Sequence record: NZ_CP067021.1
Reading direction: 5' to 3' (one strand)
From: a plasmid
DNA: 64,000 bases
In this document: positions 49,301-64,000 of the stretch, one piece after another
How the letters are laid out: each line of letters begins with the position of its first letter
How positions within the stretch are numbered: the stretch's first letter is position 1
Program-made: the position numbers

Positions 49301-52300
49301 TAAACCAAGCCTTTAAGAGAGAAATCTCTTAAAGTTGCGCTTAAAAACGTAAACGATGTTTTTTTTAATTGATTAAAAAAGGTTTTTTATTTTTAGCGCT
49401 GCAATGGCGCTCGTCATTATTAATTCTTTCTTGATGCTTAAATAAGTATTTTTTAAAAAAACTTTATCCGTTCATATTCTTAATATAATGAAACCTAATC
49501 AAGCAAATAGCTTAAAATTTGGAGAAAGCTCATGAATTTAAAACCTAATTTTTGCCCGATCGATTTTAACGAAGTTCACGGCGGTACTGACAATTTACCT
49601 TTGTTTTTGGTTAAAGCGTCACGCCAGGATTCTAACGATGACGAGCATAGTGAGTATTTCTTCATTCGTGCACCTCATGAGAACCGTTTGGCTTTCTTCC
49701 TTGCCCACATGTTCAAATCACATGTAGATAATGCCCTTTTGACCTTGGAAAACTTGGCTGAAGAAAATTATCAAAATATCCCTGAATTGGAAGAGTTGAT
49801 GTCTTCATATGGTGTGATTGATGGCGTTGGCGAGTATACGCTTTTTGATTTCCGCGTTAAGGAACTCACACTTGATAAAGCGCTGGAGCTGGTCGAATTC
49901 ATTGAAATTAACCCACTCAATACTGATATTGTGGGTTCACTATTCTTGGAGGCACTTTAATGAATAGTAGCTTTATCTTAATTAATGAAGCTATGGCGCC
50001 TATTCGTAAGAATATGGCGCTTTTGGAAACCCTGTTATCTATGATCAGTACTGCAGATCAAGACCACGGCGACCAAAGCCCAAGCTTCCACATTAATATC
50101 CATGCTGGTATTGAATTGCCTGATCATGAAATTGCATATACCACTTTAAAAGGTTTTGCAGAGCTGACCGAAGATCATAATCTTTGTATCTATATGAATC
50201 CTGAGCTGTCAGAAAATGGCTTTATGTTGCTATCCACTCAAAACGTGGTACCTGATTGCTATGACAATTCTATCTTTGTAGATCTGTCGAATCAGTTATG
50301 CAACTTCTTCAATCAAGAAGTACAGCAGTTAAACGATCAAGCGCAAACGGCGTTAAAGCTGTTGTTACAGCATAAAATCAATGGAACAGCGATTCGCACG
50401 TTCAACCCTGAACAATTGCAGATCTTACAGAAAATCGCTGCATTAGATAGCTTCATGCTCGATGACCAGCGCGATTGGTTTTACTTTTCCGAAGTGACCA
50501 TTGATAACGCCTATAAAGACATGAAAAAAGGTTTAGAACTGTTGGTTCTCAACGAAGATATTAAGGATGCACTTAAACAGCTACTTGATGCAAACAACAT
50601 GGAGTTTTGTGATTTACCAATACTCGTGGTTTTGTATCCCCTACTGGTTAAGTCTGAAGAAAATATCGAACTGGTACAGGCTTGCTTAAGTCATCTCATT
50701 GGCAACAACTTAATCAATGAGCCGTTTATTGCTGGTGTACAACTTGAAGCTGGTGCATTTAATAGCGAAATGAACACCTATACTTTATTGCCACACATGA
50801 AAGCAGTAAAAGAATTGCTGATAGATATTGAAGCAGATCTCACAAAAGTTTAACCGTTTTACTTGAGCTCATTGCTCAAAACCTTGGAGTTGTTATGGAT
50901 ACTATTGTTCGCGTTAAATCAGTTGGTGTTTTAGGTCTATCATCTAAAATCACGACATTTGTAATCGACATCGAGCTTGATGGCGGTAAATTAAAAATTG
51001 AAGATCAATTGCTTCATTTTAAGAATACTTTACGTACAAGCTATCGAGAATATGATGAAAGTTTAGCGATCGTAAACAATAAGGCTATACTTTCCAATTT
51101 AGACAATGCAGTAAAACCAAACGAATTGCATGCTTTAGTTGATGATTATATCGACTCAGTTTGGGTAACAGATGCCAATAAAAACACCACTCAACAGCGC
51201 CGTGCGTCACTTGGTTTGCACAATCCAACGATAAAAGACAAAGGTGTTTTGAAAGAAGCCCTTTTAAGTGAAGTGAAGTTAGCCTACAAAAACTATATCA
51301 ATCAGAACGTAGAAGCCTGATCAGATCGGAAGTATGTTGCGACCAGCATACTTCTTTTTTTTTGAACCTTAGCCTAGAATCATCCAATATCATCGCTTCA
51401 TACTAAGAAAATCATGCCATATCTCATATATTTAATGTTCCTTGCGTTTGCAAGCGCCGTAATTTTAGTGAAAAAGGCTTATGGTCTTAACATCCAATTA
51501 TTTGCAATGGGGATTGTCATCATCATTGGACAATTGGCAATTTTTTGTTTTATCAACGCAGCGATTAACATCAACAATGAAAAACAACATCGCAATGCCG
51601 TCAAAACCTTGCACTATGGCGCTTCATTTTCATTAATTGTGGTCACTACACAGGTCTATTTATATAAGTATGTGTTGCACAAACAGGAATATTTGACCAT
51701 GGCAATTTACTTTTTAGGAACGTGGTTTGCAATCACCCTTTTAGACTCAGTGTTTAAGTTGATCAAAGTTGGTATTTTTAATAGCAAGAAAGACAGTGCT
51801 GAAGTTGTGAACTCAACGCGTAAAGTGACGGTAATTACATTAGCGATCTGTATGTTTGGGTATTACTTATTTAGCAAATATGCATTAAACATTAACGTAC
51901 TAAACTAGACATCTTGTAAGGAAAACCGCACCTAATACACAAGCGCAATAACCAGCAAAAAAGAACATCCTTTTAATTATTGCGCTAATCTTTTCCGTCA
52001 CAGCACTGTTATAAACAAAAAACACAATCATAAATATTAAACCGATCGTGCAGGCGAATAAGGTAAAACCAATTAAATAAGTAAAAGCAAAGTCAAAGTT
52101 TAATACCACTGGAAAACCAATAGATACAGCCATTAAAGCTATTGTACTTGATGCATTCATATCTTAAAGCCCATCTAGCAACTGGCTTAATCGTAGCGAT
52201 AAATAAGGTTTAAAACTGAAACTTTATGATTGAGATTGGTCAATGCACATTACCAAAATGTGCTTGGTATATACCAGAAAGCAAAGAACCAGACGCAAAA

Positions 52301-61300: not shown

Positions 61301-64000
61301 GTTTAAAGGCATTAAATTATTCAAGTGCTGGAATGAAGCTACCGCGGATCTCGTGTTAAATGCCGTAAAAGGCGCAATCAAGGGTAATCGTTACGAAATA
61401 CCAGACGTTAAAAAAAGCAAAAAGTTTGCTGTTGATAGCTGGGTAAGAAACATTGATCTAAAGTTTCTACATTTGCCAGTCGGTCAACTCACCAACCTGT
61501 ACAGGGAACATCAAGAGCGTTTAAGACTGAAGCGTGAAAAAGCCAGACTTAAAGAAAATGAAAACACGTATGACGTAGAACCGCACTAATCACACCCACC
61601 AGGAATAAGCACCCATAGCTTATTCCTTTCATAAGATGATGGCCGTAAACGGTGTTTTTAATTGATTAAAAATAACTTGAAATCATGAGCCTATCAGCCG
61701 AAATACTTTTACTGAAAAGTTATACAGGCCACATGCACCGATATAATGAATACATCAAAGCTCATTGCTTAAAACTTGGAGATACGACAATGCAACTACA
61801 AAAATTTAATACTGGTACTGCTAATGTGCGCCACTTGCTACAAAGCTTCACCCAAGCGTATGACGGTTTACCAAGTTGCGTCATCAATGTGATTGGCGTA
61901 GCAACCAAAGCAGATCCGCAGTTTATTTTTAACATTGAACTGGATGTCGTTTTATTTCACCAACATAAGTCACAAGCCTACTGCATTGAAGTCAATGCAC
62001 CGTTACAGGTTCAAGCCATCGCAGACGCTCACGAATCATTTAGATTCAGTCCTGATGATTCTCATGCATTGATTGAGGGCGAAGTCATGGATGTGGCGAT
62101 AAATTTACAACACCAAGCCATTAATGACATGATTCAATATGATTTGCTGTCAGATGCAGAACTGGAAAAGTTCAATACATGGAATAAAGGTTTCGCCAGT
62201 GCATTACTGACTGAATGTTTTGAAGATGTCGCAGATTTTAATGCGCTGCATAGCTCACATTTTATGGCGAACACTGTTTATTTAAGACTGATTGAGTACT
62301 TTAAAAACAACCTGTCATAAGAAACCATTAAACAAATAGAGGGAGATCCAATAAAGGTCTACCCTCTTTTTTTATGCCTTTAGATTTTATGACGTATACG
62401 ATGTTTTTTAATTGATTAAAAAAATATTGGAATTTTTCATTGCCAGTTCCATAAGTAATTTGAGAAAAGTTTTTAAGGGATATTTCACAAATATAATTAA
62501 TTCATACCTAAGCAATTGCTTATAACTTGGAGTTGAAGATATGAAAAGCCTACTTGATTTTTTTACAAACCGTTCTAAAACATTAAACATTATTGTGAAT
62601 CCTGAATTAAATACAGGTCATTCCCTTGCTGATTTTTCGTATAACGAAGAATTGCATCAAGACCTTAATGTATTAACGGTTATTCCGCTTGATCATTACG
62701 GAAACTTTCTATCTTTAACCCTTGATGATTGGGGCGTTATTACTTCAAAAGTTCAATTCCCTGAGCATCTTGATTTTAATCAATTGCTCAGCATTTTTTG
62801 GGAAACACAACCCATTTTAGTTGTTACTGACATCGCACGTTCAGAAGTGCATGACAGCGACTTTTTTCAACAAAGCTTGGTCAAGCAAGTCAATCTTGCA
62901 TATAGCCGAGATATTGCCAGTGAATATGCACCAGAAGATGTTCACTACATCTCTCAATCTTTTGATTTAGATAAGCTGATGCGTTGCGGTGTATATCTGC
63001 AAGGTCATTGCTATTCAGCTCATGATTTCGTCATTAACAACCATAACCTATTTGAAAAAGACAGCTTGATTGTGCCTGTTTTTAACATCCACTCGACACA
63101 AAAAGAACTGCAACAATTTTTAGTATTTGATCTGCAAGGTAAGTTTTTGGATTGCGTTGTTGGCACTGAAGTTTTGTACTAAGGAATATTGATCATGTCT
63201 AAAAAATACTTATTGATTGAATTGAGCTACGAAGCACCAAACAACACCAGTGCTGATGCTGTTTTGCACAATGTCTATATTGATATTAATCACCCTGAAA
63301 ATCTGGCGATGTTTAGCGAGTCTTGCAAGAATCGCCATGAAATTAATGAAAACCTACCCATTTGCCAGTTAATCACTTCATGGGTTCGATTACTAGGGAT
63401 CTTCACCATTCTGGACAATACGGATCAGGACAAAGAAACCCCTGTTCTCATTCAACTTGCTGACGGCGGTACTTTATCTATCGATGGTTGGGAAATTCTC
63501 GACCAAGAAACCAAAGATAGACGCTTGGCGTTAATGGACATTGAGCCAGATGAAGAACAAGACGTAGACGACCCTATTTTGTTCGCTTATGAGCATTCAG
63601 ACTCAATCACACTCACCAAAGTTGAAAAGCCAGTAGCAGAAAGTGTATATGTCGCTACGCGTAACTCTTACAGCAACAACTTTGATTTAGTTCTTGAATG
63701 TATCTTGAATCCTGAAAAACATTACAGCCTATATCAAGGCTCATATGATGGCACTCATGTTCAAGTGATCCTGAATGACTTGGCACTACTACCATCATGT
63801 AAGACACATAAATCAGAAATTGGCGACTATGTAACATGCAATGTACTGGAGCTGTTCAAAGGCTCAATAGATGCGTATGGCGCAGAAAATGAATTTATTG
63901 ATTCATTCGTGCAACTCGACATTACACCGTACTTAGATAGCACACTGAAAATGGACTACACCGAATTGCAGTTTAGCTACCAGAGCAACGATCTCATTGC

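Follow-up and report, generated by a model that had tools for sequence, protein, structure and literature searches.

Two kinds of plasmid region that have been described in the literature are relevant to the locus reported here. In IncN plasmids, the CUP-controlled regulon consists of co-oriented leading and maintenance operons, each headed by a conserved repeat that carries a promoter and an ArdK operator (PMC5371602, PMC6289460). Uniform gene orientation is also a hallmark of the leading regions of plasmids (PMC11541004). We analyzed a window of 64,000 nucleotides from the plasmid sequence record NZ_CP067021.1 (all coordinates are those of this window unless another sequence is named) and found an island of small genes, beginning near 44.9 kb, in which many genes are preceded by copies of a repeated three-part cassette. 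From 5′ to 3′, its parts are an upstream DNA element (module A), a predicted promoter (module B), and a hairpin joined to a Shine-Dalgarno (SD) sequence (module C). We consider it fairly probable that these repeats are functional cis-regulatory cassettes that define a regulon of the plasmid backbone. A description of this three-part cassette was not found in the literature searched.

Module C consists of a hairpin of 4-5 base pairs (RAGC, a loop of 4-5 nucleotides, and GCUY), the spacer AAAAC, the SD sequence TTGGAG in the block AAAACTTGGAG, another 5-9 nucleotides, and ATG. The 21-nucleotide leader sequence GCAATTGCTTAAAACTTGGAG occurs four times in the window with three or fewer mismatches (56360, 60564, 61761, and 62512), always on the + strand, compared to an expectation of 0.01. 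The block AAAACTTGGAG, with at most one mismatch, has 11 copies versus 2.2 expected, and the eight that are located at 49.5-62.5 kb are all on the + strand. A covariance model for the leader (R1) was trained on 17 copies and used to scan 314 kb, which yielded 10 leaders in the window with scores of 30.6-45.3 bits; the next-best match in the 314 kb scores 13.6 bits. A previous inspection of the DNA by eye, hereafter the sequence-only reading, had proposed a translation-initiation leader shared by many genes. The counts are indeed far above chance, and R1 recovers every short version that had been listed plus one at 52480. The leader is thus real, but the proposed name is too narrow, given that this element is the 3′ third of a cassette that also includes a predicted promoter and, 5′ of it, a DNA element.

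The 10 leaders are all on the + strand. Among them are the leader at 49493-49534 (AAGC-AAATA-GCTT with AAAATTTGGAG; 40.5 bits) for the gene at 49532-49960, the leader at 52480-52521 (GAGC-TCAAT-GCTC; 34.4 bits) for the gene at 52519-53055, the leader at 56349-56390 (AAGC-AATT-GCTT with AAAACTTGGAG; 37.0 bits) for the gene at 56388-57230, and the leader at 58243-58284 (AAGGC-ACAAA-GCCTT; 33.8 bits) for a gene of the PAPS-reductase family. The top-scoring copy, at 61750-61791 (45.3 bits), is located upstream of the gene at 61790-62320, and others precede the DUF6573 gene at 60593-61027 (60553-60594; 37.2 bits) and the gene at 62541-63182 (62501-62542; 30.6 bits). The sole copy without a clear hairpin is at 54960-55001 (32.3 bits) and serves the gene at 54999-55562. 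Two leaders have no promoter of their own: one at 50857-50897 (32.7 bits) in the 41-nucleotide junction before the gene at 50895-51320, and one at 57593-57634 (37.9 bits), directly 3′ of a terminator-like hairpin, for the gene at 57630-58106. The suspicion that open reading frames beginning at 56364, 57573, and 61685 carry spurious N-terminal extensions proved right, because RefSeq relatives of 843, 477, and 531 nucleotides place the starts at 56388, 57630, and 61790, just past the leaders. The motif corrects start-codon calls on plasmids of this family (group III-4a, see below).

Strong evidence for covariation indicates that the hairpin is maintained. The stems vary (AAGC/GCUU, GAGC/GCUC, AGGC/GCCU, UAGC/GCUA, and GGC/GCC) and the loops are variable, and yet among 26 distinct leaders 90.4% of the cells in the alignment are paired, four of four pairs covary, and 14 double-sided changes stand against a single one-sided change. 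None of 500 shuffles attains the observed score, and controls in which the position of the stem was slid pair in 12-51% of cells. Leaders that lack a promoter are present at polycistronic junctions (50857 and 57593), the distance from hairpin to SD is constant, and G·U pairs occur on the sense strand only, all of which point to a role at the RNA level. These features argue for a selected structure that works in the transcript, not a DNA operator. The hairpin begins 10-12 nucleotides past the −10 element in five of the seven promoter-bearing units, with an overall range of 7-15. Transcription starting 6-8 nucleotides past the −10 element would place the hairpin 3-6 nucleotides from the 5′ end, which is the geometry of known 5′ stabilizers. 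No match to Rfam 15 was found at E ≤ 1 in the 44-64 kb region.

Module B includes a run of T nucleotides or an A/T tract with GTTTT (GAGAAAAGTTTTT), a spacer of 17±1 nucleotides, and TAtAAT, and it has no −35 element of the TTGACA type. In composition, its upstream tract is similar to an UP element. The pattern formed by this tract and the −10 element has 11 matches versus 2.7 expected. Matches on the + strand are located at 49446-49489 (A/T tract, 17 nucleotides, TATAAT) for the gene starting at 49532, at 52439-52479 for 52519, at 54917-54957 for 54999, at 56309-56346 for 56388, at 58194-58234 (TTGAGAAAAGTTTTT, 17 nucleotides, TATACT), and at 62456-62497 (TTGAGAAAAGTTTTT, 17 nucleotides, TATAAT), where the latter is an exact match to the consensus. 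The copy at 60506-60550, for the gene at 60593, is also supported by the alignment of an orthologue whose footprint is kept in a sister lineage, and the copy at 61709-61747, for the gene at 61790, by comparison of the block that extends from the −10 element to the SD. Two further copies serve genes without a hairpin leader. One (59464-59505) precedes the gene at 59538-59876, and the other (47208-47244; TTAAGAAAAGTTTTT, 16 nucleotides, TAAAAT), which also lacks module A, precedes the gene at 47273-47886. Module B is predicted to be a promoter for the housekeeping sigma factor that uses the UP-element-like A/T tract and GTTTT.

Phage early promoters likewise have strong −10 elements, A/T-rich upstream tracts, and −35 elements of the GTTT type, and module B recalls this arrangement. 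In addition, a few products of the island match PHROG families of unknown function. It is nonetheless very improbable that the island is an early region of phage origin or prophage-like character, with the repeats serving as early promoters and ribosome sites of a phage. When 2.9 million viral contigs were searched with both of the leader types described in this report, only single matches at chance level were recovered and no arrays. Among GTDB genomes, multi-copy leader matches are confined to plasmid-like contigs of Acinetobacter; those in Clostridia and other metagenome-assembled genomes are single copies that we regard as chance or unrelated. Moreover, the island neighbors genes for TraX, a transglycosylase, and a Dot/Icm-type type IV secretion system (T4SS), and we saw no genes for phage structural or replication proteins.

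Module A is an element of approximately 50 base pairs comprising (A)ACCG/CGyAwwCGrTG (CGnnnnCGRTG), a run of four to eight T nucleotides, and the palindrome AATTGATTAAAA, often followed by (n)TTTTGAA. Its 14-nucleotide sequence TTTAATTGATTAAA occurs eight times in the window compared to 0.26 expected, and 13 times on pH7-250, a complete relative of 250 kb that was also scanned. The orientation is identical for all eight copies in the window and for all 13 copies on pH7-250. Module A is located 20-67 base pairs 5′ of module B, often directly after a genuine terminator. The copies in the window, all on the + strand, are found at 48347-48386 (AACCGCATACGGTGAATTTAATTGATTAAAA), 49343-49394, 54866-54904, 56233-56274 (about 50 nucleotides 3′ of an intrinsic terminator at 56151-56190), 58145-58184 (with one mismatch in the palindrome), 59413-59457, 61641-61680, and 62388-62432; the last was also examined by comparison with a paralogous unit that is described below.

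The exact conservation of module A suggests a sequence-specific DNA-binding protein, and we infer that the element is the binding site of such a regulator or of a silencer. The only obvious candidate for this binder, and for a silencer of the island, is an H-NS family paralogue encoded at 47966-48292 on the − strand (Pfam PF00816, E = 1.1e-15), whose own promoter region overlaps the first copy of module A. Several other identities for the element were considered and set aside. Module A is not a terminator, as its stems are 2-4 base pairs at most and the true terminators are 5′ of it. Its likeness to the IHF or H-NS consensus is a loose one to TCGATAAATT (PMC2094087). A possible resemblance of the left half (CCGCATACGG) to the Acinetobacter I-F repeat concerned only one or two copies and was dropped.

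The modules occur in various combinations. The full cassette precedes the genes at 49532, 56388, 58283, 61790, and 62541, whereas modules B and C without A precede 52519 and 60593, modules A and B without C precede 48479 and 59538, and module C alone is found at the polycistronic junctions before 50895 and 57630. The sequence-only reading had described almost every gene from 44.9 to 64 kb as small, acidic or zinc-ribbon, on the + strand, and separated from its neighbor by a terminator. Orientation and acidity largely bear this out, as 23 of the 28 genes in this region are on the + strand and most of their products are acidic (isoelectric points of 4.1-4.7). The part concerning terminators holds only to a degree: 20 terminator-like sites were found versus 12.7±3.9 expected, but the scan and inspection of the junctions found none at several of these, namely 49960, 50895, 55606, and 57243. 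Overall, the arrangement supports a model of the island as an array of small genes that share one orientation, have independent promoters, and are controlled in coordination, on a backbone of conjugative type.

The 13-kb region that carries the repeats matches 64 Acinetobacter plasmids (125-399 kb) with 95-99.4% identity, and the top match is pXBB1-9 from A. johnsonii XBB1. By sequence, the window is assigned as backbone DNA of Acinetobacter megaplasmids of group III-4a (the pXBB1-9/pALWED1.1 family), and flanking DNA was taken from pXBB1-9. The transfer system of this group is Dot/Icm- or R64-like (MPF_I) (PMC8490738, PMC7738440), and its relaxase and oriT are not reported in the literature (PMC8490738). 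The island holds approximately 35 small genes, mostly acidic orphans, and its repeats are sharply restricted to it. On pH7-250, which has 13 copies of module A and 16-17 leaders, both elements are confined to one backbone island that is split by resistance insertions (44.7-69 kb, one position at 88 kb, and 102-106 kb); the scan of the complete 250 kb found no copies in the T4SS, partition, or other backbone regions. Sixteen of 17 leaders on this plasmid are on one strand. The sole exception (L004 2222-2263, − strand; pH7-250 ~102.2 kb) is located about 105 nucleotides 5′ of the annotated start of a gene for an ANT(3″)-like adenylyltransferase, which could mean that the annotated start is wrong or that a small open reading frame intervenes.

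The elements are also conserved across lineages. A sister lineage (L114), found via a protein 50% identical to the product of the gene at 61107, has a syntenic island with four exact AATTGATTAAAA palindromes that retain the CGnnnnCGrT flank, and seven leaders in which AAAACTTGGAG is unchanged whereas the stems are different. In these same samples, a Cas6-like protein shares 60% identity with the copy in the window. In the upstream region of the orthologous DUF6573 gene, the A/T tract with GTTTT, the −10 element, ATCAAA, the hairpin, and the SD are all kept, whereas the 17-nucleotide spacer has diverged. Fragments recognizable as module A (CCGCATAC... and AAAATTGATTAAAT) and as the start region (CTATCGAAA) are also found in L007, a more distant metagenomic element in which a type IV-like cas operon and a gene for a PAPS-reductase-like protein are present. 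L007 repeats a promoter module of its own. This module (GGACAAATGACGTTTTAnTTGTTATAAT, an extended −10 element, then TCTATCGAAACTA) has 4-5 copies, including those at 2035-2089, 3667-3721, 9946-9978, and 10610-10664.

Together with the conservation across lineages, comparisons within the family argue that all three modules are under selection. The unit of the gene at 61790 has a second copy, with a coding sequence that is 66% identical, elsewhere in the island of other family members (L063 6481-7147 and L064 3607-4256). The two units are identical at 43 of 44 nucleotides in the stretch that starts with the hairpin and includes the first codons, and approximately 90% identical in the module A at their 3′ end; the hairpin on one side and the end of module A on the other are the limits of the homology. 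This shows, at the level of sequence, duplication or exchange of entire units composed of a leader, a gene, and module A. Likewise, a 40-nucleotide block extending from the −10 element to the SD is identical at 37 of 40 positions before two unrelated genes. The neighboring genes at 56388-57230 and 57630-58106 are paralogues as well, with an N-terminal region in common, a 39-nucleotide stretch that is 87% identical, and one leader each.

Such boundaries would be expected if modules A and C chiefly marked cassette borders at which genes are exchanged, whether by homologous recombination or by a site-specific system like pdif or attC, or were left over from duplications, and had little regulatory role. 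The insertion of resistance regions within the island and the ability of CUP repeats to mediate rearrangements in IncN plasmids (PMC5371602) also fit this idea. We nevertheless judge it an unlikely explanation for the repeats as a whole, since it does not call for several of their properties. The elements keep fixed distances to the start codon, the SD, and the −10 element, in the manner of expression signals, the hairpin covaries in a manner that recombination does not require, and the orthologous promoter footprint keeps the −10 element, the region of the transcription start site, and the SD while adjacent bases have diverged. The island is also stable (at least 80% of it is kept as one piece in 53 of the 64 plasmids) and has no integrase or Xer-type gene. 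The modules bounded by pdif sites have these in opposite orientations. The co-orientation of module A (13 of 13 copies on pH7-250 and eight of eight in the window) is unlike this, which speaks against an identity with pdif or XerCD dif modules.

The 28 products of the region from 44.9 to 64 kb were searched against Pfam, PHROGs, NCBIfam, and PADLOC at the sequence level, with one fold tested. Recognizable products are Cas6e-like, H-NS, Fic, cold-shock-domain plus Excalibur, DUF6573, and PAPS-reductase-family proteins; the remainder could be assigned to no family by Pfam, PHROGs, or NCBIfam. The H-NS and Fic assignments made previously hold (PF00816 and PF02661). The Fic-domain gene (54095-54853, + strand) codes for a protein with a long acidic tail, has no cassette of its own, and matches the PADLOC candidate defense family PDC-S04 (E = 5.5e-44), which points to a possible defense or toxin activity rather than anti-defense. 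The PAPS-reductase call for the gene at 58283-59380 (+ strand), a PP-loop protein, has no support from Pfam but is favored by PHROG 424 (E = 1.7e-27) and by 61% identity to annotated genes of this family on IncC-type plasmids; tblastn finds it on 1498 plasmids, 1144 of them predicted to be conjugative. The gene for a protein with cold-shock and Excalibur domains is at 59946-60443 on the − strand (PF00313 and PF05901), and the DUF6573 gene at 60593-61027 on the + strand matches PF20213.

The first gene of the island (44977-45621, + strand) codes for a solo Cas6e-like RAMP protein that is type IV-related. Pfam PF08798 matches its C-terminal G-rich loop (NGIGRDKTYGFG), which corresponds to that of CasE, and the PADLOC model typeIV_Cas6 matches with E = 2.6e-9, where the best PADLOC match is the Cas6 of type IV-A3. 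For an AlphaFold2 (AF2) model with a pLDDT of 70, the top 26 Foldseek matches in the PDB are all Cse3/Cas6e (E down to 8.8e-5, TM ~0.4). These matches agree with the ferredoxin-like fold and the C-terminal glycine-rich loop of RAMP proteins, albeit with a modest TM and in a pLDDT-70 model. The protein occurs in only 66 Acinetobacter plasmids, in 63 of which it is >90% identical to the window copy. A homologue that is 33% identical is encoded within a type IV-like cas operon, as are distant homologues (L007; p10FS3-1-1, L071). No CRISPR array and no effector cas genes were found in the window or in pH7-250; such cas genes are present only around the distant homologues, near which no array was seen in the DNA examined. 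The leaders themselves were rejected as a CRISPR array, and are probably not solitary repeats either, given that no arrays were found and that their spacing is irregular (650-4200 nucleotides) and tied to start codons.

The absence of a CRISPR array leaves the Cas6-like protein without a conventional substrate, and this raises the question of whether the leader is that substrate. The hairpin could be the recognition or cleavage site of a plasmid RNA-binding protein, either the Cas6e-like RAMP, which resembles Cas6e by motif and fold and is nearest to type IV Cas6, or alternatively the cold-shock-domain protein, an arrangement that we consider doubtful. Cleavage at the base of the hairpin, for which we hold out equally modest expectations, would free cistrons with the uniform 5′ end AAAACUUGGAG, and would be the counterpart of engineered Csy4 insulators. 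Cas6 substrates generally have a small hairpin followed by a single-stranded tail, and the leader, with its small hairpin and conserved single-stranded tail, has this general shape. Leaders at internal junctions are also consistent with processing. The Cas6-like gene and the leaders occur together in the III-4a family and the sister lineage, but this co-occurrence is uninformative because both are part of the backbone. Furthermore, stems of 4-5 base pairs with variable lower pairs and loops are a poor fit to a sequence-specific Cas6, the homologue associated with type IV genes does not conserve the candidate catalytic residue His17, and the structural model is moderate (pLDDT 70, TM ~0.4). Plasmid pAbPK1b, which is discussed below and has an analogous leader on 30 genes, is not among the Cas6-like matches listed. 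L007 and p10FS3-1-1 have type IV operons but no leaders of the R1 type.

A bolder version of this proposal, to which we give little credence, is that the hairpin serves as a plasmid-specific RNA signal for a trans-acting factor, in the III-4a family an orphan Cas6 of type IV origin, which would cut or clamp leaders on entry into the host, whereas module A would be a DNA switch for silencing after establishment. If true, a CRISPR nuclease would have been repurposed for plasmid gene expression, and the mRNAs of the island would be uniform, insulated, and co-regulated.

In the mechanism that we favor, a regulator or silencer, for which the H-NS paralogue of the island is a candidate, would bind module A, and the housekeeping sigma factor would direct transcription from module B with a start approximately 3-6 nucleotides before the hairpin. 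The most likely role of the hairpin would be that of a 5′-terminal or inter-cistronic stabilizer and insulator that provides each gene with a uniform and efficient initiation region. The blocks that cassettes have in common would also act as homologous junctions for swapping genes into and out of the island. As a whole, the island would probably be an establishment or early-expression region comparable to the CUP regulon.

A number of observations weigh against a regulon of this kind. The 4-base-pair stem is weak (−2.7 to −9 kcal/mol), and the probabilities that the SD and AUG are unpaired do not differ significantly between 12 leader genes and 38 others (p = 0.60 and 0.08, respectively), such that a role of the hairpin in keeping the ribosome site open has no support from predicted accessibility. 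A generic sigma-70 scan missed the cassette promoters and found 43 sites compared to 64 in shuffles; it is uninformative for promoters of the module B type, which it misses because they have no TTGACA-like −35 element, and the activity and start sites of module B are predictions from sequence. No ArdK-like or other specific regulator of module A was recognized among the island products, either by Pfam or by a model of the protein encoded at 61107-61589. This protein, the one basic product of the + strand, was tried as a regulator, but its AF2 model is unusable (pLDDT 54, pTM 0.34). The similarity of the copies could derive partly from gene conversion instead of selection. With regard to status as a leading region, none of the 28 products matches ArdA, KlcA/ArdB, PsiB, SSB, or an Acr protein in the searches described above, and Pfam finds no relaxase domain in ten large hypothetical proteins of pH7-250.

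The sequence-only reading had interpreted this region as a candidate anti-defense or establishment region with largely novel content. That it has no recognizable ssb, ardA, or psiB gene and that most products lack a family in Pfam, PHROGs, and NCBIfam agrees with our results, but its proposed anti-defense content does not, as no anti-defense domain or fold was found and the Fic protein matches a candidate defense family. We therefore consider a leading or anti-defense region plausible but unproven. No long inverted repeats resembling the Frpo/ssi hairpins of F-type single-stranded DNA promoters were found in the 44-64 kb region.

Other features of these plasmids were noted in passing. On pH7-250, approximately 15 tandem repeats of 47 base pairs with the palindrome TTATCAGACTGATAA are located beside parA/parB (L004 36248-36960; pH7-250 136.2-136.9 kb), and are probably a partition site that is distinct from module A. 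In the window, positions 12000-20000 have a G+C content of 49-59% compared to ~36% elsewhere and presumably represent an acquired resistance or transposon segment. A four-gene operon on the − strand at 31191-40272 codes for a type III restriction enzyme (1056 amino acids), a type III methyltransferase (642 amino acids), a 227-amino-acid protein, and an HKD+SNF2 helicase that corresponds to the PADLOC candidate C3a139. At the equivalent position, pH7-250 carries a different pair of helicase and methyltransferase genes.

Megaplasmids of group III-4a disseminate numerous resistance genes, including NDM-1, OXA-58, and tet(X), between species of Acinetobacter. A sharply bounded regulon would mark the backbone genes that are co-expressed on these plasmids and would offer three experimental handles, namely one DNA site, one promoter type, and one RNA motif. 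In addition, annotation does not yet reveal the polarity of transfer in this family, for which the island is a candidate early or leading region.

The PAPS-reductase-family gene also led to a parallel system on pAbPK1b (NZ_CP024578.1), a conjugative plasmid of A. baumannii with MPF_F and MOBF functions. Its leader has the form GAGCN-GAAR-N′GCTT abutting AAGGWG, with a 5-base-pair stem, a GNRA-type loop, and a covarying top pair, and is present in 30 copies (L012, L070). The plasmid also has 4-5 copies of an upstream 18-base-pair palindrome (TGTTGCGGATCCGCAACA) and a repeated shared promoter (AAGTATGTTTTAGTAGTATAAT). The only significant match in an Rfam search of pAbPK1b was the IS3 ALIL pseudoknot. 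Of the 30 leaders, 23 are found in a + strand array that ends just 5′ of the genes for an accessory protein, the type IV coupling protein (T4CP), and the MobF relaxase. Genes of the array, which include H-NS, thermonuclease, and PAPS-reductase-family representatives, are oriented towards the T4CP-MobF junction. With a layout of the R388 type, the side that holds the array is the expected leading side, which is the first to enter the recipient.

Both plasmids thus carry dozens of genes with a covarying hairpin of 4-5 base pairs just 5′ of the SD, and in both the order is upstream palindrome, shared promoter, hairpin, and SD. The two systems differ in the sequences of the leader and of the palindrome (TGTTGCGGATCCGCAACA in pAbPK1b), and the pAbPK1b leader lacks the AAAAC spacer and has a loop of the GNRA type. 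Several copies of it are located within the tra operon, and the backbone (MPF_F, MOBF) is unrelated. The pAbPK1b cassettes are an independent system, for which no description was found in the literature searched, and they represent the best available, although indirect, support for interpreting the island as a leading region. The recurrence of a leader that joins a hairpin to an SD, in another form on an unrelated backbone, may reflect a general and undescribed design rule for the expression of plasmid cargo in Acinetobacter.

Among systems that are already known, the 5′-terminal stem-loops that stabilize mRNAs, such as that of the ompA 5′ untranslated region, resemble the island hairpin in that the latter is located a few nucleotides from the predicted 5′ end and 5′ of the ribosome-binding site. 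They differ in that the island motif is repeated over many genes of one replicon and is fused to the invariant AAAACTTGGAG. With the anti-defense and establishment islands of leading regions (PMC11541004), the locus shares a long and nearly uniform array of small genes on a conjugative-type backbone beside transfer genes, a PAPS-reductase-family gene that is common on conjugative plasmids, and a majority of uncharacterized acidic proteins. Unlike those islands, the window has no recognized anti-defense, SOS-inhibitor, or SSB gene, and its genes are predicted to use conventional double-stranded promoter cassettes, with no structures of the Frpo type.

The likeness to the CUP regulon is one of layout, with no apparent relationship in sequence. 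In the island, as in the CUP regulon, one conserved repeat stands at the 5′ end of several co-oriented units, and accessory DNA has been inserted among the repeats, which may mediate rearrangements here too; the island repeat carries a predicted promoter and a putative site for a regulator. The island has no ArdK-like regulator, ardA, or ardB that we could find, its −35 element is replaced by an A/T tract, and it belongs to another host genus and another T4SS type (MPF_I). Moreover, its repeat is tripartite, and joins a covarying RNA hairpin to the SD in a leader that is also used alone at internal junctions. Judged by this layout, the CUP-controlled regulon of IncN plasmids is the closest known analogue of the island, which appears to work in a similar manner without being a member of the same family.

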